64,000 nucleotides of DNA. It comes from Takakia lepidozioides (taxonomy: Eukaryota; Plantae; Bryophyta). The translations under genes and the position numbers were made by a program. Positions 10,285 through 61,068 of this stretch are shown here, piece after piece (position 1 is the first letter of the stretch; each line of letters begins with the position of its first letter). The notes beneath the pieces were generated by a model. That model did no database searches. It was not told the DNA's origin and worked only from the letters and a program-made list of their open reading frames with translations. The stretch lies in contig CM060734.1 of the NCBI GenBank assembly GCA_030704615.1, forward strand, positions 62,248,001 through 62,312,000. The letters run 5' to 3'.

Positions 10285-10319
10285 TTTTTTCCTTGAATCA
10301 GGTATGATATTATCTGTCC

Positions 10320-12300: not shown

Positions 12301-12304
12301 CATG

Positions 12305-14545: not shown

Positions 14546-14547
14546 CT

Positions 14548-14559
14548 TGGTATCAGAGC
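14548..14559 (+). promoter_or_regulatory. Primer-binding site for initiator tRNA-Met
   Basis: TGGTATCAGAGC, 2 nt after the 5' LTR. Confidence 0.95.
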
Positions 14560-14600
14560 TTAGAGTTCAGTACGCGATCGTCCTTGGGATTGGCCTCATC

Positions 14601-19945: not shown

Positions 19946-20037
19946 ACTCCTTGATGTGGGACGCCACAACTTGGATGTTCGTTTCTACAAAATGGACAAG
20001 TCGATGAGGACATCGACTCCCTGTTGGTAGGGGTGTG

Positions 20038-32060: not shown

Positions 32061-32094
32061 TAGGTGAAGACAACACCTCCAGATGTTCCATAAT

Positions 32095-34560: not shown

Positions 34561-34609
34561 TATGCCGTTTGAAGCTCTTTTTGTAGTGTCTCATGCCTCG
34601 TAATGTGGT

Positions 34610-38368: not shown

Positions 38369-41061
38369 TCACAAAATGAGAGATGAATTAGGATAAACCC
38401 ACAGCATGAGCTCTGATAGCCAAGGATGTTGTAATGCCTGTGATGAACTGAGTTGTTTGTCAGTGAGCTTCCTTATAAAGTCTTCAGCATGTGCTGTCCT
38501 TGCAACGGGGATATACTCATCCAGGAGTTTGCCAACACTATACATGTCTGAAAAGGGCGTATACTGGTTGCCCTCATACATCTCCGGATACCAGGCTGAG
38601 AAAGGCTGAAATCCATCAAACAATTTGATAGAATAAATTTCAATTCCCCATAAAACATCGGATTAAGCGACCTCATCTTAGAACGAAGATCGCCTTCAGC
38701 TGCATGCAAGTTGTCAACCTTGTCTTCACCTACTAGGAAGGTGCATCCAAAGGCTATGCCAATCGTATCAGGCCTTGTCCTGTGTGCAGTAGTTTGGGAG
38801 AAACTGCACCACGCCCTTTCAGTAGAATTGAACGAAAACGTGACCTTAAAACCGGCCACATATTGCTTGAAAACGCCAAAGAACTCTTGCAAGCCGCCGC
38901 ATGCAACGAGGAACGATGTTTGTATCTCGGTGACTATCTCCTCAAGTTGGCGCAATAGGAAGGCTCCCACTAAACAAGGAAGTCTTGAACCATCTGTCTC
39001 GATTAAAACATTCGCCGCCAACTCGGGCATTGTTGCTGATACATACTCGTAGGTCTGCGGCGTTACAGGAAGCTTCCGATGCTGCTCAGGGAACAATACC
39101 TTTTCAAGACCGGCCTTATTTTGGGGGAGCTCAGGTAGCTGTGGGAGCAGCATGTACCTAATCCAAGCTTCGGAACGATCTTTGCGGTAACCTGCTTGAG
39201 ATGTATCACAAACAACAGCAACAAAATGACTCAGAATAACAATAGAAGTGGATGCAAGGACGGCAAGCACTCACAAGTGAACGACCAAAATGACGGTCAA
39301 CTACCAGAATATCAAGGCAGAAGTTACCACGATCCGGTGACAAACGAACCCCTAACTATCAGCAAACTCAGGCCACAGGACCCTAAGAATCTCAAACCAC
39401 CACAAGGCAACTCGTTACTCTAGCTAATCATTGTCCAGACAAACTCCAGAAACAGAACCTAAGTATCAAGAACTCCACAAATACTCGATGCAACAAATAA
39501 AGACAACCCTAGGCACTCATGAGAAATGAGGGGTTTGAATGATACTACTCATATTTGCAGCCACGCATCAAACAAACCCTAGCTATGAAAAGAATCAAGA
39601 AAAGATCCCAGCATCAGCAACCTAGGTGCCAAGAATCTACACAACCCCTGAATTACACCAAACGGGACGTTGGGGATTTAGGGGACCCTGCGGGAGTAAA
39701 CATAACCTACGGGACAAACAGCTCCAGTAAGTACAAGAAGACATACCCTACAACCCTTGCTACGAAAGCCTTGCAAAAATTTATGGAGTGAAGGCAAGTG
39801 GAGCTTCTGCCTGCCTTCACAAAGTTTGCAAAGCTTTCAATAATTCAAATGTGCCTGCCCATCATCAGAATTGCAGACATAAAAACAAACGGGCTCAGAC
39901 TGCCCTAGGCAACCCATCGACATTCACCAGACTCTCTCCATGACGCACTATCTGACACCCTAGCTAATGGGTGAACACTGTCACAGAAGGTTCTGCAGCC
40001 AAGGCGGTTTTGGTTAACTCACATAAGTCACCAACAACCACATTCTGTCATCGACCAATTAACAGCTCAACACATGCGCACAATTTCGGCTAGAGCTTTC
40101 TATCTTCTGAAGATGGTACTCAAGAAATCGTAAAGGTTTGAACAACACTACTGATTTGCAGGTCACATGCATCAAAGTACTGAAGAGAGAACAGAAACTC
40201 ATTCTTCACACATTGGTAGCAAACCCTACAAACTTACACTCACCAGACTCCCTCCTTGACGCACTATCTGACACCCTAAACCATCAACCATGGTTTCCAT
40301 AACCAACAATCCCACAAAGAAAGTAGGCTGCGAAGACAGACACAACACCGTTCAACCAAGAAGCAAGAGACATAACAAAAATCAGATGAAGATTTGAAAC
40401 CCTAACCCTGTACATACTCTTGGGATGCCATTGAGCCCGTCCAAAACTGTTTCGGTTATGGTTATGGATGCAAAAAAACCAATACGGCAATCACTCACAA
40501 GTGAACTACCAAAATGACGGTTTAGAGTTAGGGTTTCAGGCCACACAACACTTTAAACCTGCCATCATCTGCCGCAATCTGACCGACCACTGCGCTTCAA
40601 GAGATTCAGAAGGGCTTGCCCTCTGACCTCGCACGAAAAGTGCCCACAAAGGTTCACGGCCAGACATTTCCAAGAAGCAGTGCAATTCATATAATCCTTG
40701 TGAAAACCCTTACTCCAAAACGAGTGTGTCGGCAACCAGAATTCCACATACAAATAACAAACAACCGTGAATAAGAATGGAGCAAAAAGACATCTATCCA
40801 ATAAAGCGGCAAAGAGTCTACAAAACCTATCCAATAAAGCAGCTGGGAGTGAAACATACCAGGAGCAGGAACAGGAGCTGGTAGGAATGCCTGCTTCAGG
40901 AGTGCGACAATCGCAACATCTGTCCAACGTGGGGGGAAGTAGCGCTCTGGTTTCCCACCCACATCCTCATAGCTCATAAGACGCCCAAGTATAACGCCCC
41001 TTTCCTCCTCAGAAAGTCCAGGCAGAGTCCCGAGTTTGTCCACCCAGCCAACCTGCACCAT
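38369..41061 (-). pseudogene. Second Crinkler-like REase-kinase paralog, internally deleted
   Basis: Exon 41061-40860 splices in frame to 39191. RPDTIG...FLVGEDK, FYGELKFIL, then jumps to the kinase C-lobe (PEM...SDMYSVG...ALQHPWL). Confidence 0.7.
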
Positions 41062-42590: not shown

Positions 42591-43258
42591 GTAAATTCCC
42601 AAACAATGTGGTCTTTGTCAATGACTCGGGAGTTCGTCATCTTTCTTTGTTTGTTTACCACCTTAGAGTAGCTGCGTTTGGACTCCTTGTTCAATATTCT
42701 GTCTTGTACCCTGCTTTCTTTTGTATAAGCTCTTTGAGCTTTCCATGGACTTAGCAAAGTTTATTTATTTATTTATTTATAATATATACGGAGATCTGTA
42801 GGATGATCTTGCCTCGTGGTCTCACCCTTTGAAGTTGTTGAGTTTTTCGAAGTTGTCGAGTTTTAGATGCGTTTGTATCCCCTGCTTTAGATCATTGCAT
42901 TGTTATGTGCTATGAGTCTATACGATAGTGCATGCCATAAACTCCCTCTCGAGTAACGCATGTAAGATCATCTAAGTTGTTCCTAATGTGTCCATTCTTT
43001 TGCAAAACAGAGATAGGGTTTTATTCTCCTGTGTGTCGTGCACCTAAGCATCGTGCCACAACATACATCGCTGTCCACCACACAATCTAAGCACACAATC
43101 CTAGAAAGTTATACCACAATGAAAAGAGTTGAGAAATGAGAGAAGTGAAAGACCATCAAACCACTCTCAAATATGAAAGAAAACGCAATAAGACCACACC
43201 TTAGTCCTTTCAAGTGTGAATCCACTCCATCACTCATATATAAGTTCCCCCACTACCT

Positions 43259-44124
43259 CTATCCAAGGCATCGTGGACACAACCATTCTCCACTATGAAC
43301 CTCCTCAAGTGGCGGTGTCAAGCATCCCATGTGCCACCCCCTTGAGCATTTGTCACACACCAACATGGTCGTGGCACCACCAGCATGCCCACATAGCATG
43401 CAACGCAACCCTGCAGGTACCACTACAAGGTTGGGATCTATCCTCCCATCCACATGTGCATTGGCGCACAATTACGCACATGGTCCTTCCATACCATCCC
43501 ATCTCGACCCTCCAGAATCAACACTCCTGAAGGCAATACCTCCCGGACCCTTAGAATCACACGACCTACTATGACATCCAAGGTCGTAGGCGCTGTCTGC
43601 TGCAGATACACATAGTCCCCAGGATGGAAACGCCGAACACCTGGCTGATATCCCCCTCCACGTATAGTGACGTACCTCAATGTATCTCGGTGTTGGGCAA
43701 TAGCAAGGTTCTCAAAAGCCATAGGCATGACTCTCTTAAACAACTTTGCCCGTTGGGCACATGCTTGTGTCCACACATACGGATCATCAAAGTTGAGGAC
43801 TACTGCAGTCTCCCTGCGAATAAATGCAGGCAAATCTGGCTCTCGGCCAAAGATAATGAAATAAGGCGAGAATGAGGCAAGTGATGATTGTTTGCTAAAC
43901 TTGTAGCCCATGGCCAACCAAGGTAGCTGAAGGTCCCAATCTCCCAAGTGTCCCTTCTGCAAGCCATACTTGCGCAAGCCTCGCTTGACTGTTTGCAAAA
44001 CCCTCTCGACCAAGCCATCAGCCTCGGGATGATCCCGAGAAATAGTGCAGTGATCTATCAAGGCTTGCTCACACAAAGCCTGAAACTCCCCCGAGAATTC
44101 TCTCCCCTGGTCCGTGAGTACCTC
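43259..44124 (-). pseudogene. Copy B integrase core and C-terminal PHD finger
   Basis: VLTDQGREF, HPEADGLVER; CMLC...MLVCDKCSRGWHMGCLTPPL...WLCPRC (intact C4HC3). Confidence 0.9.
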
Positions 44125-44705
44125 TGTCGTGCACCTAAGCATCGTGCCACAACATACATCACTGTCCACCACACAATCTAAGCACACAATCCTAGAAAGC
44201 TATACCACAATGATAAGAGATGAGAAATGAGAGAAGTAGAAGACAATGAAAGCTGCAATCACATGAAGAACAAGCCCTAGTCCTTCCAAGTGAAATCCAC
44301 TCTATCACATAAACTAAGTCAAGCCAAGGGCACCTTTGCTAAAGGAATCCACCCTACAAAGCCCTCAACACACTCCCTCTCAATACCTAGAGCTATGGAG
44401 GTGAGAGAAGCTCATGGAGGCTCAACTACAAGAAGATGAGCCTCCTCAACACTCACAAGGGGAAAACCTATCTCCATGTCTCAAGTGAGGCTCGACACCT
44501 CACTTGGCATGTGAGACCAAATGAAGTCCCAACACACAAAATATAAATATAAATATCTAAAATGTCCTAGTTAACTAGAAGTAGGTAATTCTAGATAACC
44601 ATGACTAAAACCATGACAGCTGTCATGCACCTAAGCATCGTGCCACAACATACATCGTTGTCCACCACACAATCTAAGCACACAATCCTAGAAAGTTATA
44701 CCACA
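44125..44705 (-). repeat. 3' terminal repeat block B1(44705-44621)-GC-A2(44618-44211)-T-B2(44209-44125)
   Basis: B1 and B2 are near-identical 85-bp repeats; A2 is near-identical to 54789-55200; a PPT-like AGGGGGGCG lies at 44716-44708. Confidence 0.92.
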
Positions 44706-44933
44706 ATCGCCCCCCTAGCTGGTGGTTAGGTCCATCTAACTCCAGATAGCTACAAGATGTAATAGCCACAGCCGTACTAAGTCCTCTATCACTGTCCCTA
44801 TTGTACTCAAACTCTATAGACCAAGAGGTCGGGTACAAGAGCAACCCCATCGTTAGTTGCCGTCTTGCAATGTGTGAACTTGAGTCAGGATCTCGTGTGT
44901 TAGTCTCCTAGTAGCTTGGCCTTGCATTTCTTG

Positions 44934-47900
44934 TTAGTCTTCCATGGTTGTATCCACTCCCACTAATCCAATGCAATGCGGACATAACCAATCCCCATCA
45001 GGAACCATCTCAAGAGGTGGAGTCAAGCATCCCATATGCCAACCTCTAGAGCATTGATCATACACCAGCATGGTGGCTGCCCCTCTAGCAGACCTACACA
45101 ACATGTACCTCAAACTTGTAGGTACCACTGCCAGGTTTGGGTCAACCCTTCCATCAACATTTGGAAGGTGACATGGCGCGCAATTACGCACATGGTCCTT
45201 CCAAATCATGCCATCCCGACCATCCAAGATCACGACTCCCAAGGGCAACACCTCTCGAACCCTCAAAATAGTACGTCCTACAGTCACATCCAAGGTCGTA
45301 GGAGCAGTTTGCTGCAGATAAACATAGTCACCAGGGTTGAATCTCCGAACCCCAGGACGATAGCCCCCACCACGTATGGTAGCATACCTCAACATATCAC
45401 GATGTTGTGCAATGACAAGGTTCTCGAAAGCCATGGGCATGACTTTCTTGAACAACTCTGCACGCTGTTCACATGCACGTGCCCACACGTCCGGATCATC
45501 AAGGTTAAGAACTGTAGCAGCTTCTCTGCGAATGGATGTAGGCAAATCCGGCTCTCGGCCAAAGAGAAGAAAGTATGGTGAGAATGAGGCAAGTGATGCT
45601 TGCTTGCTGAACCTGTAGCCCATGGCTAACCAGGGTAACTGAAGGTCCCAATCTCCTAGGTGTCCATTCTGCAAGCCATACTTGCGCAAACCCCTCTTTA
45701 TTGTCTGAACAACTTTCTCTGCCAAGCCATCGGCCTCAGGATGATCCCGAGAAGTGGTGCGGTGGTCTATCAAGGCCTTGTCACACAAAGCCTGAAACTC
45801 CCCCAAGAACTCTCTCCTTGGTCCGTGAGTACCTCACTGGAGCACCGAATCGGCTAAGCACACAATCCAAGAATGCATACGCAGCTCCCTCACTAGCATT
45901 TATCAGGCAATGGAACCAATTCAATCCACTTGGAGAAGTGCTCCACCATCACCAACACGTACTTGTTGTGGCGCATGGTCAGTGGCAATGGCCCTACGAA
46001 GTCAAGACTCCACCTGTAGCCCAATCCCATGATCGAAAGAGGGTGCAATTGTGGAGTAGGGGCGTTGAATGAAGCACGCACCCTGTCACACACCATGCAC
46101 CTAGCCACAAATTGTTGCACCTCTGTGTGCATACCATGCCACCAATACTGCCCCTGCAGTAGACTATGAGTGCGTCGCACCCCAAAATACCCCAACTCCT
46201 CATGGGCATGCCGCACTAACCATGCCCGCTGTGTTGGGTGAGGCACAATCCTCACTCGACCATCCTCCCACACTCGGAGTAGGTGTGTCCCCTCCCATTT
46301 GAACCTCTTGGCTCATTGTAGGATCCGATCCCTCTCCTTGGCAGTCACAGTGGCTGCAGTGTCTCCAGTGCGGAGGTAGTCCAACACAACTGAATCCTCA
46401 TGTATATCTTTGGCGCCACCTTGCTCATTGCTGGCCTCAGGGTCCTCAGACACTTGATCTACAGTCATCCCTGTTGCAGGTCCAATCTGGCCTTCCGCTG
46501 CCAAGATACACAGAAATGCAGATGCATGCCATCCGGGCACCATCTCCTCGTCCGTCTCACCATGCCACCGAGCTCCAGTGTCATCCTGTTGGCTCGTGCA
46601 TGGATTGCGACTCAACCCATCTGCATTGCGATTGACCAAACCCGGTCGATGCACCACCTGAAAGTCATACTCTTGAAGGATGAGTGCCCACCGTGCAAGC
46701 TTCCCCGTAAGCTTGTCTGACTCCATCAACCACTTGAGTGGTTGGTGATCCGTGACAAGGGTGAAGAGATTGCCGTATAGATAGCACCTGAAGTGTGCCA
46801 CGGCCCACACTGCAGCTAAGCATTCTCTCTCATATGAGCTATACTTAGACTCTGCAACGTTGTTTGAGCGGCTAGCATAAGCCACTACGAACTCTCTTCC
46901 CTCATCATCCACCTGTGTGAGCACCGCTCCAAGCCCCAGCATGCTCCAATCTGTATGCAGCTGAAAAGGACGCCCCCTGATAGGTCGTCTCAAGATGGGC
47001 GCCGAGGTCAACCTCGCCTTGAGCTCTTGAAAAGCTTGTTCTTGCTCATTTTCCACTGCCACTCCTGGTCCACCTTGGTCAGCTTGGTTAGAGCCTTTGC
47101 AATGGCACTAAATCCCTTAACAAACCGTCTATAATAGTTTGCTAACCCCATGAAAGCTCGAACTCGGCTCACATCCGTGGGGCGTGGAACCTGTGCAATG
47201 GACTCTACCTTAGTCTGTTGTACCCCCAATCCTCCAGGATATATCATGTGACCCAGATACTCAATCTGGTTGTGGAAAAACTTGCACTTTCCGGATGTAA
47301 CTTCAATCCGTGCGCCCTCAAGCGCTCAAATACCCCCTGAAGGTGTCTCTCATGCTCTTCCACCGTAGCACTAAAGATGATGATGTCATCTATGTAGCAC
47401 CGAGCAAACTCCACCCCTGCTAGAATCTGTCCATGACTCTCTGAAACTCTGCCGGAGCGTTCTTAAGCCCAAATGGTAAGAACCGCCACTGGTATAGGCA
47501 ATCCTTCCCGTGCTCATTGATCCCCCAGAATGCCGTCTTTTGCTTATCCGCCTCCTTGATCGGCAACTGGTGATATCCGGATCGTAAATCCAACGTGCTA
47601 AAGACCTTGGCATGCCCAATGGCATCAAAGATCTCCTCTGGTGTTGGCATGGCATACCTATCGGACTTGGTCTGACGATTTACAGGCCGGTAATCACCGC
47701 ACATACGTCTCTCCGTCCAATTGCCAAAGACATCCTTCTTGGCTGGCATCACTGTGGCTGAAGCATACTCTCCCCCAGATAGCTCCACCAAACCAGCCTC
47801 CCAAAGGTCCTGAGTTCTCATCTGAATCAAGGACCTCTCCATGTCACTGTATCTATAGGGTCTCCGAAAGATTGGCGTGTCAGTAGCCAATTCAATGCGA

Positions 47901-48094
47901 ATCTCTTGACCCTTCAGTGCTCCTAAGTCCTTCAAACTGAAGGCAAAGCAGTTCCTGTAAGCCCTCAAGAACCGCCGTATACGTCGTCTCTCTCCTCCGG
48001 TGACTATAGGTCCAACATCAGGCTCCCAGTTGTCCTCCGTGACTGCAACCTTGAGTCCAGCAGGCTTAGAGGTAGAAGACGCGTCCCGTGGTTG
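44934..48094 (-). pseudogene. Copy A pol: RT, RNase H, integrase, PHD finger
   Basis: [28 protein letters not shown]; TDWS..GLGAVL, TDHQPL; HEELG..CMVC, SLDF, HPEADGLAE; PHD with two Cys-to-Tyr changes. Several frameshifts and a stop at 46313. Confidence 0.93.
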
Positions 48095-51000
48095 CTATGC
48101 TGCAACCTCTTGAGCAGTGACCACTGCCTCCTCTGTCAGTGACAATGTCTCATCCTGCCCCATCATCCCATCCTTGAGGACCTCCTCAATCCGAGAAAAA
48201 TCCCCAACCTGATCCATCACCGCCGCCTTGGCTGCCAACTCCTTCTGAACCTCGAGCACCTCCCACGTGTGCCATGGATGCGGCCTGCACCTCGTGGTCC
48301 TCACCTGCTCGCCCCCACTCGCTGCCTGTACCGTCTCGGTAGGCAGGGAGACCATGAAGGGAAGTGTACTCCGTACTCTGCGCTGCTCAGCCATAGCCAA
48401 GCTGATAATCCAGGTCAAGCAATTGAGATCCATTGCTTGCCCCAACACCTGACGACGTGATGCCTCAGAAAGAGATGGCACCGCCGTGGTACCTGTGGTA
48501 AAACCCATCGCCCGCTCGCGCTCGTCAGCATTGGGCTCCACTAATTGTTGCAACTGGCTATCCCACAAGAGGCCAGGTCCACCATCCCGAAAAGCATGGG
48601 ATCCTGGGAAGCTGAGCAGTGTAGGTAATGCTGCTCGTGGTTGACCCACCCTGTTGACCACTGCCAAAGGCGAACGGTCATCGTGTCTCACACGTTGAGA
48701 CTGCCTCCCTGTGTCCAAAATGCTATCCACTGTGAGGTGTGCTGGCCGCTGCACCCCATCAAATGCACGCTTGAGCAGTGCGGGTGGCATCAAGTTAGTC
48801 CACCATAGCCGTGGACGATGAGCCCATGACCCCACTGCAGCTGCATCCAGCAACACTGCTGACCCAAGCCACGACCGGACTTGATGCACACTGGCCATCA
48901 CCCTGGCCCGAGAATCACCCATCAGTGGCACATTCTCCAAGATGTATGCTGGAGATACAGCTTGATGAAGCTGCAAGTGGCGCAAAATCCGCACCATCTC
49001 CCAAAACAGACCCGTCCTCGAGTCTCGCAATCCATTGCCATGCCCGGCTGATGAATGCCCTTGGCAGGGCCAACCTGCCACTACCAGATCAATGGAGCCA
49101 ACCCGCTCCAAATCCTGCGCCCCCAGCAACGAAATGTCTGCTGGCAAGGCTTGTTGGTATCCACGAACTGCAGACACTGGCAACAAATCAGGGTACTGCT
49201 GTACCAACTGAGCAACATGGCGCAGTGAGACGCGTCGTGCAGTCTCATCCCTCTCCACATACAGGTAACGTCGAACTCGTACACCTGCCTGCAGTACTGC
49301 AGCCAATCCAGTGCTGATCCCGCCAAACAAGTCCAGAAGGCATATGCCTTCATCCGGGCACTGCCACACAAGAGGTGTGGTGTCCAATGGCGACAACTGA
49401 GGTGGTCCTGGTGCAATCACCGCACTCTCCTCTTCTCCTGACGGTACGAAGGCCTCTACCCAGGCTTGTTGTACCCGTCCATCAGCAGCCTGCTGCAAAT
49501 CCTTGCTCGTACCCCATAATGGAGTGTGAGCAACCATGGCAGGCAACTCCGCCGTACCATGCATGTCATCCTGCTCTGCTGGAGGTGGCACATCCTCTGC
49601 ATGGGCATTGCCTTCCAGCAACTCTCCAGGCCAACTAACTGCAGCTGTAAAGGCGGCTAGTGTTGGCATCTTGCCCCGCTGGGCAGCCGCAATACCCCCA
49701 ATGAATGTCACAGGGAGCTGTGCACGACGACCATCCCCTGACTGCCATCCAGGCCTGTAGGATGCTGACTCCTCCCAAAAGTCCAGGGTGAAGCCCATGG
49801 GATATAACACTGCCCCACCAACAAGGACATCGTAAGAGACCGCGTCTGTCACAATGGCCTTGGCTCGCATCACTGAGCCATCTACAGGATGATCTGGTTG
49901 TAGTCCAATGGCCAACTCACGCCGTGTCATGCCCCGAGCCTGCTCTGATCCTCCCAGAGATGTCTGTATCTGGAAAGGACAAGGCTCCATATCCGCCTCC
50001 ATGAGGCCCAAACCTGCAATAGCAGCTCTGCCCAACATCAGTGGCTGAGCTCCTGAGTCCAACAAGACCCGCAGTGGCCGGTACTTCTTGCCTGCCGGTC
50101 CACTCAAAGTGAAAATGCCTCCCTGGTTGTCTAACAAGACAACTCCAGGTGTCACCATGGCGCGCTCAAAGGCTGGCCTAGCTGGCAGCTCCGTCAACCT
50201 GGCAGCTGCAGCTTGCCATGGCGCAGCCGTGGCAGTCTTGACCCTCAAATCCGAGGATCCCTCTGCCACTACACCTTCCAGTAACTCCGCAGAAGATGAA
50301 GTGACCTCCCCACTCTCGCAGAGTGTTGCTGCTAGTCTGAACACTGCAGCTGGTCTTACCCCCGGCGTCGCAATCATGGTTGCCGAGAACAGTGGGGCTT
50401 GACACACAGAGGTGGCTGCCCCCAATAACACACCGGCTGCACTAGCCTTGGTAGCAGGTGTCAGTGCTGCACGTGTAGCTCTCCCCAATGGCATAGTAAC
50501 CTCCGCCTCGGTAACAGTCGGGCGAGAACTAGGTGCCATGGATGGCGTCGACACTGTCTCCGCCAATGTGAATGACTGAGGAAGCCTCGCCTGACGGCTT
50601 GCCTCCCCACGCTGTGGATCCAATTCCACCTCTGCACCTCGTGGCTCAGGAACTCGTGCTGCTCCTCGAGTCACGGCTGCAGCAGACTCCACCTGCACTA
50701 GTGGTAGTGCTGCTCCGCACATGAATCCCATGCCTCCCATATCTCCTCCCTCAGGAGCAGGAGGTGGACCATCCCGCCTGGGAGCCGGTACCACCTGAGC
50801 TGTAGCCATGGCAGCGAGCCTCTGCTCTAGCTGCTGAAGCCGGTTGGCCATGTCTTGGTCAACACCCTGACCTCCGCGTCCTTGGCCATGTTGAGCTTGC
50901 CCTTGGCCTGCACCTCGTGCCCGACCACCTCGTCCTCTCTGGGCTGGTCCACCTCGCCCCCGGCCACCATTGTTCCCTTGGAACTGGCCTGGGCGCAACT

Positions 51001-51196
51001 CAGGGTGCAAGTCATAACACTGGGCATCTCCATGCCCATACTTGCCACAATGCCCACACTGCAACTGTGCAGGCTGTGCTTGTGCCGGCCTTCTGCCACT
51101 CTCTGGGCAATCTCTCTTGACATGGGGTCCTCCACATGTCCAACATATCACCCCTGGTTGCTGTTGGCCTGCAAAAGATGCCACGGGCCTCTGCAC
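48095..51196 (-). CDS. Copy A polyprotein segment: two zinc knuckles, aspartic protease and C5 cytosine DNA methyltransferase (DNMT3-like)
   Basis: 1033-aa open frame: CWTCGGPHVKRDC, CGHCGKYGHGDAQC; LLDSGAQ; LDLFGG (I), YVERD (II), GWPCQG (IV), ILENV (VI), AHRPRLWWTN (VIII), ERAMGF (IX), VLGQAM (X). Confidence 0.93.
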   Translation of the reverse strand: MQRPVASFAGQQQPGVICWTCGGPHVKRDCPESGRRPAQAQPAQLQCGHCGKYGHGDAQCYDLHPELRPGQFQGNNGGRGRGGPAQRGRGGRARGAGQGQAQHGQGRGGQGVDQDMANRLQQLEQRLAAMATAQVVPAPRRDGPPPAPEGGDMGGMGFMCGAALPLVQVESAAAVTRGAARVPEPRGAEVELDPQRGEASRQARLPQSFTLAETVSTPSMAPSSRPTVTEAEVTMPLGRATRAALTPATKASAAGVLLGAATSVCQAPLFSATMIATPGVRPAAVFRLAATLCESGEVTSSSAELLEGVVAEGSSDLRVKTATAAPWQAAAARLTELPARPAFERAMVTPGVVLLDNQGGIFTLSGPAGKKYRPLRVLLDSGAQPLMLGRAAIAGLGLMEADMEPCPFQIQTSLGGSEQARGMTRRELAIGLQPDHPVDGSVMRAKAIVTDAVSYDVLVGGAVLYPMGFTLDFWEESASYRPGWQSGDGRRAQLPVTFIGGIAAAQRGKMPTLAAFTAAVSWPGELLEGNAHAEDVPPPAEQDDMHGTAELPAMVAHTPLWGTSKDLQQAADGRVQQAWVEAFVPSGEEESAVIAPGPPQLSPLDTTPLVWQCPDEGICLLDLFGGISTGLAAVLQAGVRVRRYLYVERDETARRVSLRHVAQLVQQYPDLLPVSAVRGYQQALPADISLLGAQDLERVGSIDLVVAGWPCQGHSSAGHGNGLRDSRTGLFWEMVRILRHLQLHQAVSPAYILENVPLMGDSRARVMASVHQVRSWLGSAVLLDAAAVGSWAHRPRLWWTNLMPPALLKRAFDGVQRPAHLTVDSILDTGRQSQRVRHDDRSPLAVVNRVGQPRAALPTLLSFPGSHAFRDGGPGLLWDSQLQQLVEPNADERERAMGFTTGTTAVPSLSEASRRQVLGQAMDLNCLTWIISLAMAEQRRVRSTLPFMVSLPTETVQAASGGEQVRTTRCRPHPWHTWEVLEVQKELAAKAAVMDQVGDFSRIEEVLKDGMMGQDETLSLTEEAVVTAQEVAA

Positions 51197-52269
51197 CTGA
51201 GGTCCCCTGTAAGCTCCATGGAACTTGGGTTGGGCAACCTTGCCCCCTGACCACGCTGTTGGGCAGTCCCTTGTACCTGTTGGCTGGCAGCTGCACCTCG
51301 TGCAGGCATGTCCTTGCCAAATCCAATGGTAACAACTCGCTCCTCCACCATGTTGAGCTCAATCCGCTCAGCCAGCAGAAACACATCCGCTAATGTGGGT
51401 TGGGCCGCTTGTAACAGGGTTGCATCCCGCACCCTTCTCTTGAGCTCCTTGTCCAAAATTCCATACCAGAACTGGACTGCCTGAGCTTCAGTAACCCCTT
51501 GGGTCACACTTATCAAGCGCCTCATACGAGTGTAGGCCTCTCGCAAGCTCTCACTGGATTTGCGCTGGAAGTCTTGCAAACTTCGCAGCTTCTCTGTCCG
51601 TACACCTTGGTAGTTCCTCCGCAACTCCTGGAAGAACTCCACCACCGGGTTGAATCTAGGCACATGTGTTGTAATTGTGGCAGGAGGAGTAGTAGCACCT
51701 TTTGAACTGGTACCACCTGCAGAAGTGCCGGCACTACTTGTTCCACTACTAGTGCTTGTAGTTGGAGATGTTTGTGTAGCTGCTGGTGTCACCGCTGCCC
51801 TTGTGCCTCTAGTGATTGAGACATAGTTAGGTGACCAATACTCTCGCCACTCCTCAATCTCCACCGCATGTCCCCGCCTAAATTCATGGTAATCATCCAT
51901 GGGCGGCCCCTCAAGGTGCTGGAATAGCCCCTTCCACGCCATAAAGGGCGTAAACAGTTGTGGATTGCGCATTTGCTGCAAATCACACCAACTGTCAAAC
52001 TCTTGTATAAAGTCATCAAGCTCGATGGTGCCCACAGCTCCAGAGTACCTACGTGGCCCCTTGGTAGCTCCATACATCTCCTCCATCGTGTCCCACAACA
52101 ATGGCACGGAAATGACTTGCACCCTCGGCGAGAATCCTCCTGACTCCGAGTCTGAACCTTCCTCAGAAGACACTGAAGGTGAAAGTGGCCTAAACCGCAC
52201 ACCTTGTCTTGTGTACCCACTAGTATCGCTGGTGCTTGTACCGGCACTCCCCTCAGCAGCTGGTGGCAC
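51148..52269 (-). CDS. Copy A Gag (capsid-like)
   Basis: YSG..ELDDFIQEFDSWC, LQDFQRKSSESLREAYTRMRRL, FWYGIL. Overlaps the zinc-knuckle ORF through a frameshift near 51180. Confidence 0.8.
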   Translation of the reverse strand: MPPAAEGSAGTSTSDTSGYTRQGVRFRPLSPSVSSEEGSDSESGGFSPRVQVISVPLLWDTMEEMYGATKGPRRYSGAVGTIELDDFIQEFDSWCDLQQMRNPQLFTPFMAWKGLFQHLEGPPMDDYHEFRRGHAVEIEEWREYWSPNYVSITRGTRAAVTPAATQTSPTTSTSSGTSSAGTSAGGTSSKGATTPPATITTHVPRFNPVVEFFQELRRNYQGVRTEKLRSLQDFQRKSSESLREAYTRMRRLISVTQGVTEAQAVQFWYGILDKELKRRVRDATLLQAAQPTLADVFLLAERIELNMVEERVVTIGFGKDMPARGAAASQQVQGTAQQRGQGARLPNPSSMELTGDLRCRGPWHLLQANSNQG

Positions 52270-52947
52270 CTCCGTGATGAAAACTCACAACCCAACCGGT
52301 TGTCAACCTGTCTCTAATCCCCACTTTCTACAAGGTAACCGGGTAAAGAACCTGTTGCGGCTACTGGTTCAAGCAGGAATAATAGGTTTCTAACGTAGAC
52401 CTGTACCTGCACCTGCATCCACCGCAAGCACTCCTATGGTCTGCTGGTCATCAACCCAGCCTCACCATAGAAGAAACACTGGTGGTCTTGCTGGTCATCA
52501 CTCCAGCCTCACCACCGACAGCATACTCTAGGATTGGCCGGTGATCAAATCCGGACCAACCTCCTATGAAAACAAGCGCCCACACAAAGCTAACATGGCG
52601 CACAGTCAAGCATGCAGGTGTGGAGGGGATCCAAACACAAGAAAATCAAGACAGCAACTCCCCCACACCAAAAACACTCCACAGTGTCGCTCCTGCAAGG
52701 ACACCCCAGCCCAAACCCGGACTGACTCTTGCCTCCACCTACGGAAAGGTTTTGGCCTACAGAGAGGGTGAAAGACTATGGAGAAGAGAAACTAAAGCAA
52801 TTCCTAACCCCAGAATGCTCTCATCCCACCACTCTCCCTCCTGTCTCTATCCACTCGCTTGTATGGCCGTGGCAAGTATCCTTCAATATCCCTCAATCAA
52901 TCCTTCAAGAGCTCTTCAACATTGTCCACCAAAGCTCCTCGAAGGGT

Positions 52948-53058
52948 CCTCCAAGGACCCCAAAGATCCTCCAAACACTCCTCCAAGGACCCCAAAGATC
53001 CTCCAAATACTCCTCCAAGGGCCCTCAAATATCTTCCAAACAATCCTCCAAAGGCCCT
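52948..53058. repeat. ~32-bp tandem repeat, 3-4 copies, in the copy A leader
   Basis: cctccaaggaccccaaagatcctccaaa[c/t]act units. Confidence 0.85.
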
Positions 53059-53084
53059 TAAATTTCACTAAGTCCTTTCACTGT

Positions 53085-53480
53085 TGATACCTTAACAGAG
53101 GTATAGTCTGAGGTTGCTAGGGTCCCTTATGTTGATGATACCTTTACAGAGGTATAGTCTGAAAATGAGGGTTCTGTTTGGTATACTAACAGAGGTATAG
53201 TCTGAGCTGATTAGGGTCCACATATGGTGATACCTCAACAGAGGTATAGTAAAAGGGACAAGCTCCTGTTTGGTATACTAACAGAGGTATAGTCTGAGCT
53301 GATTAGGGTTCACATATGGTGATACCTCAATAGAGGTATAGTAAAATGGACAAGCTCCTGTTTGGTATACTAACAGAGGTATAGTCTCACATTAGGGTTC
53401 ACATATGGTGATACCTCAACAGAGGTATAGTCAAAGGGACAAGCTCCTGTTTGGTATACTAACAGAGGTATAGTCTGAGC
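53085..53480. repeat. Nine-unit palindromic tandem array with ~92-bp dimeric period in the copy A leader
   Basis: Core A[C/T]AGAGGTATAGT at 53095, 53147, 53189, 53238, 53281, 53330, 53373, 53419 and 53462. Confidence 0.92.
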
Positions 53481-54788
53481 ATACACTACTAGGGTTTGTA
53501 ATGAAGAGCTAGAATGCAAGTCCTTGACTTCTATGCTTCTACTCAAGCAAAAATATGGTCTCTAGGTGGTCATAAGAGGCATCTTCTTGCTCTCTTCCAC
53601 CCCAATGTGCAACCAAGAGTGGTCCAACTCAACTTGCAAGTCATTGTCCACCAAATCAATCCCCCTTCTAGTCCTTGGGATTTGATTGCAAACTACCATA
53701 TCTCCATTGCCGAGCAATCATGCATTTGTCTCCTCATCACTTGACAATTGCTCCAAATCAACACAAATTATCTCAATGTGTAGGAGCAATGCTTGTCACT
53801 TACAATAATGCTCCCAAGCAATCCGCCTTGGATCCCACTCTCACGCCATATGCCTCATTTGGGGTCTTGCACCAATCCATCATCCATGTGCTCCCCGTGG
53901 TCATTTGAATGCATGTTTCATGACCTCTTGGCCTATGTGTTGCTCTCCTTCATCATAACATGAATCAACACCTCTCCACTTCACACACAAATGGATCTCA
54001 AAGGCCTTCACCTCTTGCTAGTTCAAGAGCTCCCCTTCTCAAACTTGAACTTACAAACTCAAGCGAGCATGCTCCACACATGCACCACTTGCTTGGTCAA
54101 CTATCCACCACAAAGCTCGCACTACCAAGAGCATGAATAGCCAAGTATTGCCTCCCCCTCTTGTCACATTACATAGTTAGGGTGAAGCTATGCATACATT
54201 GAATGATGATTTCCCTTCAAGGATTTCCCACCACATGTTCTCCAAGCCCTTCCAATGGCACCCTAAGCTTGGCTCCACACCACCATGATTGGAAGATTTC
54301 TTCACATGCTCCCTTTCAAAACCTCTTGAGCTTCTTAGTGCTCTCCAAGTGCTTGCCCTTGTTGTCTTCAAGCCCAAGCATATATAGCTCCTTGGCTTCT
54401 CTTCCACAACATCCACACTTTGAACTTGCTTAACCCTAGCTTGATAGTGAAATGAGCACTAACAAGCCTTTAGTCACTCTCCACAAGCCATGGCGCACAC
54501 CATCGACTCCATAATGCATACAAAGGATTCTCAAACCCTAGAATCCATGCTTCCACACACACAAGACTTCCTCCTTACAATCCTTGCAAAATCTTGTGAC
54601 TCAAGAGCTTTCTTCTCAAGCTCTCCAACTCCTTGGTGCATGCAATACTCGAGCACCTTTCCTTGCAACCCCTTGCAAGCCTTGTGATACAAGAGCTAAA
54701 TTCTCCTAGCTCTCAACCTCTTTAAAATACAAGTGCAAAACTAATCCTTACACTCCGCACTCACAAGCATAAGGTGATCTTCTTGTAG

Positions 54789-55200
54789 TGATAAGAGATG
54801 AGAAATGAGAGAAGTAGAAGACAATGAAAGCTCTCAAAGCATGAAGCAATCACATGAAGAACAAGCCCTAGTCCTTCCAAGTGAAATCCACTCTATCACA
54901 TAAACTAAGTCAAGCCAAGGGCACCTTTGCTAAAGGAATCCACCCTACAAAGCCCTCAACACACTCCCTCTCAATACCTAGAGCTATGGAGGTGAGAGAA
55001 GCTCATGGAGGCTCAACTACAAGAAGATGAGCCTCCTCAACACTCACAAGGGGAAAACCTATCTCCATGTCTCAAGTGAGGCTCGACACCTCACTTGGCA
55101 TGTGAGACCAAATGAAGTCCCAACACACAAAATATAAACTAAAATGTCCTAGTTAACTAGAAGTAGGTAATTCTAGATAACCATGACTAAAACCATGACA
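54789..55200 (-). repeat. 5' terminal repeat A1 of copy A
   Basis: TGTCATGG...CTTATCA, 412 bp, matches 44211-44618 apart from two short indels. Confidence 0.93.
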
Positions 55201-58200
55201 CCTCGGCTGGAGCACCAAATTGGCTAAGCACTCGATCTAAGAATGCAGATGCAGCCATTCACCTTCCTTGTAAGGCAATGTCACCAGTTCAATCCATTTG
55301 GAGAAATGTTCCACCATCACCAACACATACTTGTTATGGCGAATAGTTAGTGGCAATGGGCCTGCGAAGTCAAAACTCCAACGATAGCCCAAACCCATAA
55401 TGGGTAAAGGATGCAATTGTGGAGTAGGTGCATTGAAAGAAGCTCACACTCTATCACACACCATGCACCTTGCCATTAACTGTTACACATCCATGTGCAT
55501 GCCCCGCCCACCAATACTGTCCTTGCAGCAAACTATGAGTGCGCCGCACCCCAAAATGTCCCAACTCCTCATGGGCATGGCGTATCAATCGCGCTCGTTG
55601 TGTTGGATGAGGCATAATCCTCACTGGTCCATCCTCCCATACTCGGAGTAGGTGAGTCCCCTCCCACTTGAATCTCTTGGCTCGTTGTAGGACCCGATCT
55701 CTCTCCTTAGTAGTCACACTGGCTGTTGCCTCTCCGGTACGAAGGTATGCCAACACTGGTGCATCTTCATGGACATCCTTAGCACCACCAAACTCCTCAC
55801 TAGTCTCTGGATCGTCATGCACGCTATCTACATGATCTATCACATGGGATGGACTAGCTTGAGCTCCCATTGCTAGGATGCACAAAAAGGCATATGCATG
55901 CCATCCTGGCACCATCTCCTCATCCGTCTCACCATGCCACCGAGCTCCCGTATCATCATGCTCGCTCGTGCATAGATTACGCCTCAATCCATCTACAACC
56001 CGATGGACTATACCGGCTCGATGCACCACCTGGAAGTCATACTCTTGAAGCATAAGTGCCCACCGTGCAAGCTTCCATGTAAGCTTGTCTGACTCCATCA
56101 ACCACTTCAATGGTTGGTGATCCGTGACAAGGGTGAAGAGATTGCCATAGAGGTAGCATCTAAAATGTGTCACTGCCCATAGTGCAGCCAGACACTCCCC
56201 TTCATAGGAGCTATACTTCGCATTGGCATCATTGTTCGAGCGGCTAGCATATGCCACGACGAACTCTCTTCCCTCATCATCCACCTGTGTGAGCACTGCT
56301 CCAATCCCCAACATACTCCAATCCGTATGTAGTTGGAAAGACCGCCCCCGAATAGGTCGCCTCAGAATAGGTGCAGAAGTCAATCGAGCCTTGAGTTCCT
56401 CAAAGGCTTCCTCCTACTCCTCCTCCCACTGCCACTCCTGACCCACCTTGGTCAACTTGGTAAGAGCCTTTGCAATGCTGCGCTAATCCCTTGACAAACC
56501 GTCGATAGTAGTTTGCCAACCCCATGAAAGCACGAACTCTGCTTATATCTATGGGGCGTGGAATGCGTGCAATGGCCTCCACCTTTGTCTGTTGAACACC
56601 CAATCCTCCAGGGTATATCATATGGCCCAGATACTCAATCTGATCGTGGAAGAACTTGCACTTTCCAGGGTGCAGTTTCAATCCATGCGCCCTCAAACGC
56701 TTAAACACCACCTGAAGGTGTCTCTCATGCTCCTCAACCATGGCACTAAAGATGATGATATCATCAATGTAGCACCGGGCGAAGTCTAGCCCTGCAAGAA
56801 TCTTATCCATAACCCTTTGAAATTCCGCAGGAGCATTCTTCAACCCAAACGGTAGGAACCGCCATTGGTACAAGCAATCCTTCCCATGTTGGTCAATCCC
56901 CCAGAATGTCGTCTTTTGCTTGTTAGCCTCTTTGATTGGCAACTGGTGGTAACCGGATCGCAAGTCCAATGTGCTAAACATCTTTGCATGCCCAATGGCA
57001 TCAAAGATCTCCTCTGGAGTTGGCATGGCATATATATCGGACTTAGTCTGACGGTTCACAGGACGGTAGTCCCCACACATCCTCCTTTCTATCCAATTGC
57101 CATCGATATCATTCTTAGCTAGCATCACCGTTGCCAAGGCATACTCCCCGCCTGACAACACCACCAATCCAGCTTCGAACAACTCCCTAGTCCGTGAATG
57201 GATCAAAGACCTCTCCATGTCACTACACCGGTAGGGCCTTCGAAAGATTGGTGTGTCACTTGCCAAATCAATACAAATCTCCTGACCCTTCAAACTCCCC
57301 AAATCCTTCAAACCGAAGGTAAAGCAATTTCTATAAGCCCTTAGAAATTGCTGGATCCTCCGTCTCTCTCCTCCAATGACTGTAGATCCAACATCTGGTT
57401 CCCAATTGTCCTCAGTGACTACAACCTTGGGTACACCAGGCTTGGAGGTAGGAGACGCATCCTTTGGTTGCTAGATAGCAACCTCTTGGGCCTTGTCTGC
57501 CCATCCTGACTGTGGCGTAGCCTCCACTTGCTTCGCCATAGCCACCTTGAGAACATCCTCTGGGGAAGAAACATCTTCAACCTCTTCAAAAACCTTAGCC
57601 ACCTTGGCCTCCAACTGATCCTCAGTGTATGGCTCTCCCCACTCCTCATACTGCTGCTTGAGAGATCCAATGACTCTCTCTTTGCGCATCTTATCCCACA
57701 TCTTCCATGGGTGTTTGCACCCCATGATCATGTGCTCGCCCCCACTCACTGCCTCCACCGTCCCGGTTGGCATAGAGGGTGCAATATCCAATGGGAGAGC
57801 GGAAGTAGCCACCAATGCTTGCAATCTCCATTGTTCAGCCATACACAAGCCAATGACCCATGTCAAGCAATTGAGATCCATTGCCTGACCCATCACCTGA
57901 CATCGTGATGCCTCTGACAGAGCTGACACAGCTATAGTGCCCGTGGCAAATCCCATTGCCCGCTCTCGCTCATCCGTATTGGGCTCCATCAGTTGTTGTA
58001 GCACACTCTCCCAAATCAACCCAGGACCATTGTCTCGAAAAGCATGAGACAAGGGAAAGCTCATGAGCGTAGGCAAGGCTGCACGTGGCTGCCCAACTCG
58101 ATTTACCACTGCTCAGAGGTGGACGGTCATCATGTCGCACCCTCTGTGGTTGCCTCCCTTGGTCCAAAATGCCCTCAACTGTGAGATTGGGTGGCCGTTA

Positions 58201-58355
58201 AATGGAATCTTATGCTCTCTTGAGCAACTCTGGTGGTGCAAAATTGGTCTACCATACCTAGGCCTATGTGCCCATGAACCCACTGCAACTGCATCCAACA
58301 ATACAGCTGGTCCAATCCATGACCGGATCTGATGCACACTGGCCATAACTCTCAC
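55201..58355 (-). pseudogene. Copy B: DNMT C-terminal half, RT, RNase H, integrase N-terminus
   Basis: AHRPR, ERERAMGF, VMGQAMD; YIDD; TDWSMLGIG; HEELGH. Colinear with copy A; several frameshifts. Confidence 0.92.
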
Positions 58356-61068
58356 TAGAAGCATTCATGTCTTTTCCGAATCGACTGCATGTCCAAAACC
58401 ACTAAGGGAACAACTTTGAGATGTTTGTTACTACTGCACAGTCGTAACGGATAAATTCGCATTTCTAATGGCGGATAGAAGTTGCATCAATGACTCCGCA
58501 GTCAATGCAATATTCGCGGCGATTTAATTCAATTACGTAAATTGTTTTATTTTAAAAACAACAATTACAAGTGGTTTTAAGCACTAGAGAACGACTCTTA
58601 ACAACTAGGCATTCATTGCACACCCTATTCAAAAATGTGTCAAGTTAAATAAGCACAGTGTGAAAACAACTAGAATAAAGCTAGTTATTTGTATTTAACA
58701 CTTGGATTTAGGTCAAGTGTTAAATCAGGTGTCAAGTTTAGTTTGACACCTGAACTGCCTTATCTTCACGAGAGCGGCAGTCGCGCAGCTCATCTCTCTC
58801 GAGTTGAGCCTGCGTGACCGAGCTCCTTCATCGCTTCAGGACTGAGTGTGCTTGTGATGGGAGTGTAGGTTGTTGTGGGGTGGAGTCCCCATAGCTTGGG
58901 GTGCCCCTGGCTTGACTTCTATTTTAAAGAGTGATAGCGATGGATTCATGTTGTTTCTGGTGTGAATAGTGTGTCTCTATGCTTGTTTATCACTCGAGAG
59001 AGATGACCGTTATCTAGTGTGTTGGTGCTAAGCTAGATACAATGTTTGTTTTAGCATTATTATAATATATATCTTGGGGCGGGAGTCCATCTGGCCCTGC
59101 TGTTTCCATGGGCTGTGCGCGCAGATTTAGTTGTCGTCTCTGCTCGTGAGTTTGAAAACCAAGAGGTGTGGAGGTTGAAGACGTTGATAGTTGGCTTCCC
59201 TACTCTCTTTCACTTGGACGGAGGGAGACGAGACTTGTGTAAGCTTTGGATTCGGACCCAAAACAGTTGGGAGTGGCTAGATCACGAAGTGCAAACAGTT
59301 TGGGGTGGCATCATCCTGGTTGTGGTGGCTTCCTCTGGTGGAGGTGTTGCTGCTGCACCTGCCGGAGAAAAGGAGAAAATGTGCAGGAGTGTCGAGACTA
59401 AGTATGCAGACATAGGCAGTGAAATGAGAGGCCTGGTAGAGTGGATTGAGAGTTGGTTGCAATCTCCTTAGTGAAAGAAAATTTAATTTGCCGTGGAGAC
59501 ACAAGATGGTGGAGGATGGCGATGGCTGTGAGCTCGGTGTTGGCAGAGTGTGAGCATTGTGCTTCATCTCTGTCGGACGTTGTGTCCTCTTTGCTGATGC
59601 AGCTTTGACGACGGAGACTCAAGTGTCTGGCAATCCATTTCTTCTCGCTTGCACTTCCTGCGTTTCCTCTTTGCGATTGCGCGTTCTATGATGGAATGGC
59701 GGAGAAGGTGATGTAAGAGAAGTGTGGAGGTGTGGGGCTCGGGGGCAGCAAGGGAGTGAATGCTAATTGGATGGAGGCAGTCACAAGAAGGAAGCGTGGT
59801 AGAGTGCCTGGCAAGGTCGTGGCAATGCTGCCCAGTGCCTGCTCTCTGCAAATGTTGAGCGTTCATTCTTCAGCTTGAAACTGGGGTCGTGCTTCAACTT
59901 GCATGTGAGAAAGTAAGGAGGAGTGGGAAGAGGAGCATCTGGCTGGGTCGCGGTGCGTTGCTTTGGTACAGCAGAGAGAGGTAGTCCAGGGATGCCAGCA
60001 CGTCAAAGGCCTTTTCAATCTTACCTTGCAGCCTGATCCCGGAAGCCATCTCCATAACAAAGGCCCTGTTGTCCTTGAGCAGCGCAATCCCGTCAGTGGT
60101 CGGGTTCAGCAGCTCGATTGACCCCATTCGGGGTTGACGTTCATGCCCTTTTGAAGCTGGTTCCATGTCCAGCGCATGCTGTTGGAGCACCTGGTAGCCC
60201 ATCTACAATTGCAGTGGGGGCTGAGAGCTAGTGCCTTCGAGGATTGGCTGATGTTCGTTCGTGGGGGAAGGAGAGTGTGGCAAGCTCTACAGATGCGAAG
60301 GTTTAGCGAGGAGATGGCGATGGCTTCCGACGCAAGTGAAAGACTAAGAAGGTTTAAGGAGATTTGCTAATAAAGTGCAAATCGCAGCCTGGTGGAGTGA
60401 ATGCTCTACCTAATATCTGCCAGACTTGCGCATACTCTGGATTCCGTGGTCGCTCCTCATCTGTGGGAGACTGGAGTGTGCGTCTCGGGTTCCTGTCCCG
60501 GCGGTCACGGGTGTGCTACCAGGAGTTTGCTTCTCAAATATAAAAATGAAGGTGGCGAAGTATGTGCCTGCAAGTCGGTGATTGTCCCTCTCTCGATCTG
60601 ACCAACCAGGATTCAAGGGCGGCTTGTTCTGACCCCACTGTCTCGCCTTCTGTCTCTCTGGAAGACGCGGCCTGGTCTTCTTCACAGGCAAAAACAATGG
60701 TGATATAGGGACTTCCAATTGATTGCATTTCTTGGGGCGATCGTTGGTGGTCACCATCTGGTCTCGTGCGAACTTGGTTTGGAGTGCCTGGTCGTCAGTG
60801 AAGTGCTGCTCGTCAGGGATGTGCATGTCGCTGACTCCTTTGTCCCCTTTGATTGGGTCCAACTGAGCAGAGCCTTCGTCTTTGTTGCTCACCCTGGTCG
60901 TATCTTGTTTCACTAGAGTGTAGAGGTTGAGGGAAACCTATGGGGTGTGTTAGAGGACTGTCTGGGACTTAGGCACTTTTACGGGATCTGTGGGGTACCC
61001 TTAATTTTTGCATAGACTAAGACCAACAGGAGCCTTAGGGGTGACAGCAACGCACTTTAGGGGGAGAT

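Follow-up and report, generated by a model that had tools for sequence, protein, structure and literature searches.

A predicted DNMT3-like cytosine methyltransferase in a moss Ty3/gypsy retrotransposon, with a readthrough-type stop codon and a putative internal integration site

A 64,000-nucleotide stretch of the genome of the moss Takakia lepidozioides (GenBank assembly GCA_030704615.1, contig CM060734.1, positions 62,248,001 to 62,312,000; hereafter the window, to which all positions refer) contains a Ty3/gypsy retrotransposon on its minus strand. This retrotransposon, designated element A, carries what sequence comparison predicts to be a complete DNMT3-like C5 cytosine methyltransferase (DNMT) with all of its catalytic motifs kept. 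In this study, the DNMT frame, the stop codon between it and the reverse transcriptase (RT), and the unusual terminal repeats of the element were analyzed computationally, together with related elements in other hosts.

Element A and its methyltransferase frame

The minus-strand frame at 48095-51358 runs for 1087 codons without a stop. As an earlier sequence-only reading of the window had claimed, it joins two Gag zinc knuckles (at 51145 and 51058), an aspartic protease (PR) with the motif LLDSGA, and a C5-methyltransferase; a chance open frame was rejected as its explanation. Motifs I (49336-49319), IV (GWPCQG, 49075-49058, with the catalytic Cys codon at 49066-49064), VI (ENV, 48937-48926), VIII (48820-48800), IX (48523-48503), and X (48445-48431) were all intact and stood in the canonical, unrearranged order, in agreement with that reading. 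The DRM order, in which motifs VI-X precede motifs I-V, was not observed, and a DRM identity was rejected. The hidden Markov model comparison that the reading had proposed as a check gave a PF00145 match with an E value of 1.9e-12 (47.7 bits, where the cut-off is 22).

The nearest solved protein by sequence was DNMT3A (E 6e-11), followed by DNMT3B, DRM-type, and HhaI entries. A structure model of the domain built on a 43-row alignment had a predicted local distance difference test score (pLDDT) of 94.6 and superimposed on DNMT3A with a Z score of 29.3 and a root-mean-square deviation of 2.5 over 273 residues. Bacterial enzymes scored below DNMT3A in the same comparison (CpG methyltransferase 4dkj, Z 25.9; HhaI, Z 24.2), and Foldseek gave DNMT3A/B as the closest fold (E 2e-20). 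In an Atlas feature search, phage and streptophyte clusters tied at 0.96. The comparisons of sequence and predicted fold indicate that the methyltransferase is DNMT3-like. Contamination by a bacterial gene was rejected, because the DNMT is fused in frame to the protease in many hosts. No targeting domain or host-type N-terminus was detected on the DNMT in a Pfam scan. The features of element A, in the order of its transcription, and of the two older copies that flank it are as follows.

44125-55200 (minus): whole element A, 11,076 bp, TG...CA ends; ends mapped, with contigs joining 44121 to 55202-55203 across it
55201-55204 (minus): left copy of the 4-bp target duplication GAGG, from end mapping
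54789-55200 (minus): repeat A1, 412 bp, probably the downstream part of U3 plus R-U5; 94.6% blastn identity to A2
55016-55028 (minus): predicted self-primer at the RNA 5' end, 13 nucleotides complementary to the sequence behind A1
54777-54789 (minus): predicted primer-binding site of the self-priming type, by complementarity; no TGG tRNA-type site
51148-52284 (minus): Gag capsid part, frameshifted relative to the zinc-knuckle frame; PF03732 E 0.0014, below the cut-off
51000-51145 (minus): two Gag zinc knuckles, by motif reading
49680-50175 (minus): aspartic protease, LLDSGA at 50065-50048; no Pfam match in this copy in the Pfam scan, PF13650 matched by relatives
48380-49360 (minus): DNMT3-like C5 cytosine methyltransferase, predicted from PF00145, sequence, and fold; catalytic motifs intact
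48089-48097 (minus): predicted readthrough signal, a TAG stop in the RT frame with CAA CCA behind it; from junction comparison
46316-48094 (minus): RT and RNase H (RH), with frameshifts near 47426 and 47290; Pfam and contigs
45105-46312 (minus): integrase (IN), with an H2C2 finger and rve core, a stop at 46313-46315, and frameshifts near 45815-45898; Pfam and contigs
44973-45104 (minus): C-terminal PHD finger of the integrase, missing two of its cysteines; PF00628 E 3.3e-8
44707-44722 (minus): polypurine tract immediately in front of B1; the motif recurs before B in relatives
44621-44706 (minus): repeat B1, 86 bp, probably the upstream part of U3; 82 of 86 positions identical to B2
44612-44627 (strandless): perfect 16-bp palindrome at the B1/A2 joint, predicted integrase cut site, from joint comparison
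44211-44618 (minus): repeat A2, 408 bp, by blastn match to A1
44125-44210 (minus): repeat B2, 86 bp, right end of element A, from end mapping
44121-44124 (minus): right copy of the target duplication GAGG, 4 bp, from end mapping
55205-58352 (minus): copy B, an older member truncated at its 5' side, with half of the DNMT, RT, RNase H, and the start of the integrase, by comparison with element A
43034-44120 (minus): copy C, the remainder of the copy B integrase with an intact PHD finger (43420-43262), a partial A repeat, and a B repeat, by comparison with element A

The order Gag-PR-RT-RH-IN and the DDE integrase of element A are those of Ty3/gypsy elements. Outside the DNMT frame, the coding region is interrupted: the Gag capsid part is out of frame, and the RT, RNase H, and integrase carry frameshifts and a stop. 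Element A is a dead copy despite its intact DNMT frame, and the word intact, used in the sequence-only reading, holds for this frame but not for the element itself. In the Marchantia protein P0004, the Gag capsid part and PR-DNMT lie in a single frame.

Element A sits inside the integrase of an older member of its family, the halves of which are copies B and C. Copy B had been said to carry the same domain. It does belong to the family, but its DNMT consists only of the C-terminal half (domain residues 151-322, at 58352-57832), from which motifs I-VI and the catalytic Cys are missing. A separate AT-rich, high-copy repeat lies directly upstream of truncated copy B (58353-58940). The proposal that the domain is a family trait was upheld by Gag-PR-DNMT proteins in Marchantia, Calypogeia, and Sphagnum, and by public contigs of the element A family, which cover the DNMT as much as the RT and integrase. 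The summed contig depth in run X1, which does not give a copy number, was about 0.9-1.1 million over the DNMT, RT, and integrase, compared with 667 in the flank; the family is highly repeated. The contig depth over the 2.5-kb leader was approximately tenfold below that of the core, which suggests the existence of subfamilies with other leaders. The leader of element A contains tandem units of 43-51 bp with a higher period of 92 bp (53084-53492, minus). C-to-T decay is general in copies of the family. The CpG ratio of the element (0.42-0.64, compared with 0.51 for the whole window) does not single it out by CpG depletion.

The PHD finger at the integrase C-terminus is damaged in element A, intact in copy C, and present in most long relatives. 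Its best solved matches were CHD4, KMT2D, KDM5B, KDM5A (KDM5A/B-PHD1), ATXR5, and BHC80. Several of these fingers read unmethylated H3K4, and by analogy the PHD finger of the element A family may have the same preference.

Related elements and the stop codon between DNMT and RT

Relatives of the DNMT numbered 536 (70 long and 466 short), of which 190 were listed and examined. The named carriers among the matches listed were Marchantia polymorpha, M. paleacea, Calypogeia, Riccia, and three Sphagnum species. In addition, one relative bore the green-algal genome label Chrzof1, which we take to be Chromochloris, and one was found on a 2.4-kb contig labelled as a bacterial bin, a label that is probably wrong. 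Most of the 190 rows listed were nameless, and among them there was no fern, lycophyte, or seed-plant name and no row named Klebsormidium. A search with a profile that included flanking columns returned 732 representatives at E 1e-30 or better. The 76 pattern matches in viral contigs contained no relatives.

From 123 metagenome loci, 80 were kept for comparison, all chosen by their DNMT. Two layouts dominate these loci, namely Gag-PR-DNMT followed by RT-RH-IN-PHD, as in element A, and RT-RH-DNMT-IN-PHD; in a third, PR-DNMT-RT is fused without a stop. The first layout forms one side of a branch with a support of 99 in quick RT and DNMT trees, which were built from 31-32 hand-picked rows of 81 with the other Ty3 element of the window as the sole outgroup. 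A G-patch domain adjoins the DNMT in some relatives with the order RT-RH-DNMT-IN (P0427, P0341, and P0066). Upstream of its first ATG (52284-52086, minus), the Gag frame contains no stop and is conserved: element A shares a TRxG motif with L001, L004, and L011 there, and distant relatives begin with MVRTRSG at the homologous place; Gag may use a non-AUG start or a spliced leader.

Among the 190 proteins examined, the catalytic Cys was kept in 132 of the 139 that span it, the motif VI Glu in 160 of 170, and the two motif VIII Arg residues in 156 of 182 and 160 of 177. A count of 81/81 for the Cys in the loci was discarded because the search pattern demanded this residue. The ratio of nonsynonymous to synonymous substitution rates (dN/dS) of the DNMT was 0.07-0.21 in 13 of 22 pairs, between subfamilies, far below the value near 1 that would have spoken against the sequence-only reading. 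In three close pairs it was 0.41-0.52, with RT values of 0.43-0.60; of the remaining pairs, five were saturated, and one was near-identical and uninformative. These figures are rough, since most dS values exceed 1. The ratios and the conserved residues indicate, at the level of sequence comparison, that the DNMT domain is under purifying selection.

The frame of element A ends with TAG CAA CCA, in frame with RT, and copy B likewise reads TAG CAA CCA at 57473-57465. The conserved stop had escaped the sequence-only reading. In all 26 DNMT-RT junctions examined (24 loci, with L027 scored at its first stop, and the two window copies), TAG or TAA was found at the homologous place. The stop was followed by CAR-YY in 25 of the 26 (CAA CCC in 19, strict CAR-YYA in 6), and the single deviating junction reads TAG TAG CCA. 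The background frequency after stop triplets was 229 of 24,125 (0.9%) for CAR-YY and 0.3% for CAR-YYA. CAR-YYA is the readthrough consensus of plant viruses and alone directs readthrough (PMC2194720). Furthermore, 39 of 45 PR-DNMT proteins end without RT, some of them at contig ends, and four of the six that continue into RT are Marchantia or Sphagnum gene models. A contig from one sequencing run that may be RNA crosses the stop, too slight an observation to bear on it. The stop between Gag-PR-DNMT and RT, with its CAR-YY context, is conserved, and the DNMT is therefore likely to be made at the Gag level, with RT and integrase produced by leak, in this subgroup.

Several observations weigh against this interpretation. 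Only 6 of the 26 junctions match the strict consensus, most of the CAA CCC rows are near-copies of one family, and the independent junction lineages number about seven, six of which have CAR-YY. Distant relatives without a stop were found, with PR-DNMT-RT (P0340 and P0379) or DNMT-RT (P0429, P0039, and P0040) in one frame, and none of 20 RT-RH-DNMT-IN elements had a CAR-YY stop before RT; expression at the Gag level is therefore not needed across the clade. In addition, no stable RNA structure was detected behind the stop (z -0.76, no better than shuffles).

Repeats, priming, and ends of element A, and the rest of the window

The core of element A is not flanked by paired long terminal repeats (LTRs). 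The repeat plan is A1-core-B1-A2-B2 (A-core-B-A-B), in which a complete B+A LTR is present at the 3' side only. The ends are TG..CA, and a 4-bp duplication was found in all three elements with both ends in view. L024, from another host, also has the plan A-core-B-A-B, with a different sequence and its own 4-bp duplication. A nested insertion was rejected as the origin of the plan, because L024 shares both the plan and the joint. L018 contains a rearranged copy (5897-13444) with an internal inversion, bounded by the A start, the B end, TG..CA, and a 4-bp duplication. At its A/B joint, parts of the primer site and of the polypurine tract survive, as expected of an end-joined product.

The 13 nucleotides directly behind A1 are complementary to a site 172 nucleotides into A, a match that arose by chance at 5 of 9661 positions. 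A complement at the same offset (163-181) was present at both 5' ends in the window and in six of eight loci tested, and was missing from the other two. The self-primer and primer site of L024 differ from the window sequence, and 16-17 nucleotides still pair. The polypurine-tract motif before B was also found in L004, L009, L012, L015, L016, L022, and L024. The primer site behind A1 and the polypurine tract before B1 border the B+A unit, and therefore define a normal B+A LTR. Judged from these complementarities and borders, element A very probably primes its own reverse transcription and has B+A as its true LTR. A third 5' end of the DNMT family, consisting of an A repeat and leader with its own 14-nucleotide self-priming match, lies at 13500-12403 (minus); no coding part was found with it.

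The B1/A2 joint is a perfect 16-bp palindrome made of the element end, 2 bp, and the element start. Its centre is AGCT, it contains cytosines in CG and CHG contexts, and C-to-T forms of it occur in the window, L012, L016, and L024. Of 23 loci with a tail of at least 1.5 kb, 12 have the palindrome core downstream of the integrase, among them loci with the RT-RH-DNMT-IN layout; the core also occurs in three shorter-tailed loci, and a shuffle control gave 0.1 strict matches per set. Foamy-virus integrase cuts palindromic joints of this kind (PMC1180852). The layout probably reflects an ordinary LTR that is cut internally by integrase at the palindrome. Against such a cut stand the 11 long-tailed loci in which the palindrome is not present, and L009 and L012, which end at B1. 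The mirror product A-B-A-core-B, which a symmetric circle should yield, was seen in none of 10 distinct 5' ends, and a bias toward the 5' LTR, which would be the first finished, must therefore be assumed.

Other features were also found in the window. An intact single-exon F-box/kelch host gene of the At1g51550 family (1354-3189, minus) groups with Ceratodon, the one named moss, with 100/99 support in a tree using 39 of 121 sequences, outside the Ceratodon subclade and apart from liverworts, lycophytes, and ferns; its placement points to an early-branching moss as the most likely host. A decayed long interspersed nuclear element with endonuclease and RT lies at 6596-11203 (minus). A second, young Ty3 element (13822-20761, plus) has LTRs paired in the ordinary way, which are 98.6% identical, and gave no match to DNMT or PHD; an inverted solo LTR of its family is present at 32091-32772. 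Two arrays of a 120-bp repeat occupy 33150-34578, with open frames located at 34604-35104 and 38473-39270. The second of these frames has no Pfam match, and a 146-bp inverted match connects the two regions. The Gag of a further Ty3 element (62968-63912, plus) continues past the window end.

Proposed mechanism, alternative explanations, and known systems

The whole chain of events that we slightly favor is that the DNMT would be produced at the Gag level, packaged, and used to methylate the element's own cDNA before insertion, and that RT-RNase H-integrase-PHD would be produced through occasional readthrough only. Readthrough at UAR-CAR-YY would, with high probability, set the ratio of the enzymes. 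The RNA would, just as probably, prime itself like that of Tf1, with the plus strand starting from the polypurine tract and B+A as the copied LTR. The integrase would then, probably but with less certainty, ignore the cDNA ends and cut the palindrome at the B/A joint of the 5' LTR, producing CA-3' ends with 2-nucleotide overhangs, and the joining of the leftover A and B ends would give A-core-B-A-B. It is reasonably likely that the DNMT, released from the Gag-protease polyprotein, would methylate the cDNA in the particle, so that new copies are pre-marked. The chances are even that the PHD finger would steer insertion via the unmethylated histone H3 tail. Methylation of the cDNA must be set against the fact that no activity has been demonstrated for any Gypsy-borne DNMT3; the Klebsormidium enzyme was negative in yeast, a result called inconclusive by its authors (PMC5890265).

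A different role of the DNMT, which we consider improbable but the foremost of the alternatives, is that of a protective partner of the palindrome-cutting integrase. As in restriction-modification, it would methylate genomic palindromes or the second LTR, so that no more than one site is cut. An uncut palindrome at B1/A2 in each full genomic copy, the CG and CHG cytosines and AGCT centre of the site, its C-to-T forms in the window and the three loci, and its presence alongside the DNMT in each of the two main domain orders are consistent with this idea. On the other hand, the copies show C-to-T decay throughout, methylation of the palindrome could also come from host enzymes, and the co-occurrence was seen in loci that were all chosen by their DNMT. 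Its broader form is equally improbable: an ancient green-lineage Ty3 clade would have exchanged end-processing for palindrome cutting, with DNMT3 as the modification partner that shields genomic palindromes and is dosed by readthrough in land plants. A somewhat less probable role lies in host chromatin, where the DNMT, produced in quantity along with Gag, would enter the nucleus and methylate insertion sites or members of the element family, and so hold silencing back or steer it elsewhere. The position of the DNMT on the abundant side of the stop, its DNMT3 fold, the chromatin reader (PHD) on the same element, and a benefit to the host discussed by the 2018 authors (PMC5890265) point in this direction, whereas the Klebsormidium methylome is ordinary (PMC5890265). 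Moreover, the DNMT has no targeting domain or host-type N-terminus and, as part of the Gag polyprotein, would stay in particles.

Gag-side domains often bind RNA, and the domain could have been kept for nucleic-acid binding or RNA methylation. The negative yeast assay of the Klebsormidium relative (PMC5890265) would agree with such a function, but it is very unlikely in view of the conserved catalytic Cys, motif VI Glu, and both motif VIII Arg residues, and of a fold that is DNMT3 and not DNMT2. As for the ends, they could be rebuilt from the internal joint as in DIRS/Ngaro elements, with the A/B joint inherited through RNA and the stop bypassed by splicing. The repeat plan equals the DIRS plan, and such a route would account for the sole occurrence of A-core-B-A-B. 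However, the primer site behind A1 and the polypurine tract before B1 define a normal LTR, the L018 joint holds remnants of both, and the stop consists of just one codon, in frame and followed by a conserved 3' sequence. DIRS/Ngaro elements have a tyrosine recombinase and no target duplication; no tyrosine recombinase was detected in the Pfam scan of element A, which has a DDE (rve) integrase and 4-bp duplications. Membership in that group was rejected, and a DIRS-like route to the ends is doubtful. Packaging of a Gag-level DNMT and an internal cut at the palindrome remain the explanations that we prefer.

Why a transposon carries an enzyme that silences transposons has been a standing question since 2018, and the known cases are in algae with few genetic tools. 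Members of the clade are present in Marchantia polymorpha, a model plant in which the question can therefore be put to the test. The readthrough stop, if true, tells the timing and amount of the enzyme. The internal palindrome, if true, would explain mechanistically how an element with an integrase comes to have DIRS-like repeats, until now unaccounted for, and leads one to expect a retrotransposon integrase that cuts at a specific site. Standard LTR finders are likely to miss such elements because they are without paired LTRs, and element-borne DNMTs can inflate gene counts in bryophyte annotations.

The sequence-only reading was correct in stating that retrotransposons of dinoflagellates and Klebsormidium have captured DNMTs (PMC5890265). 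In KnitGypsy-Dnmt3 of Klebsormidium nitens (de Mendoza et al. 2018, PMC5890265), the DNMT is located in the Pol frame, has a Ka/Ks below 0.2, and showed no activity in yeast. This element resembles element A in its Gypsy domain set, its intronless and unrearranged DNMT3-like domain, purifying selection, and the DIRS-like A-core-B-A-B plan; it differs in that its DNMT shares a frame with RT and RNase H (PMC5890265), whereas a conserved stop lies between them in element A. The host is an alga there and a land plant here. The main text of that paper, the figures of which may show PHD or the domain order, does not mention Marchantia, PHD, readthrough, or a palindrome, and a target duplication is also unmentioned in the portion searched (PMC5890265). 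SymbioDIRS-Dnmt3 of Symbiodinium, for which de novo CG methylation was demonstrated in yeast, has a DNMT3 within a retroelement and the same repeat plan, but it has a tyrosine recombinase rather than a DDE integrase and was reported as an independent capture (PMC5890265). DAM-LTR and EpiLTR are also Ty3 elements with a methyltransferase and a chromatin reader; their enzymes are adenine or DNMT4-like ones accompanied by chromodomains, and they are stated to be distinct from streptophyte Gypsy-DNMT3 (bioRxiv 10.64898/2026.05.21.726589). In the available text, two reports mention 'streptophyte' elements without naming land plants (PMC12344493; bioRxiv 10.64898/2026.05.21.726589), and that of two liverwort genome papers (PMC12885004, PMC9985172) does not mention the domain. 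In the literature searched, which covered few subscription journals, there was no land-plant report of the family and no account of readthrough or of an internal palindrome cut.

The individual features of element A also have counterparts. Element A shares with Tf1/sushi-type and plant Tcn1 chromoviruses, which include self-priming moss Ty3 elements, a chromatin reader on the integrase tail; the Tcn1 elements have a chromodomain, ordinary paired LTRs, and no methyltransferase (PMC6317226). Self-priming in element A is indicated by complementarity, and its integrase tail carries a PHD finger in place of the Tcn1 chromodomain. The CAR-YYA stop hexamer is used by SIRE1. Tobacco mosaic virus likewise has an in-frame stop with the CAR-YYA 3' context (PMC2194720). 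In contrast to both, the stop of element A stands between a captured enzyme and RT. At the circle junctions of the IS3 family, a palindromic end-to-end joint is cut by a DDE enzyme. The integrase of foamy virus acts similarly on the junctions of 2-LTR circles (PMC1180852). In these two systems the palindrome arises only on circularization, whereas element A has its palindrome within the LTR sequence and, in the proposed model, would leave the true ends of its cDNA unused. The capture of a DNMT by Gypsy elements is thus already known, and the new features of element A are the readthrough-type stop, the PHD finger on the integrase, the land-plant host, and the predicted internal integration site.

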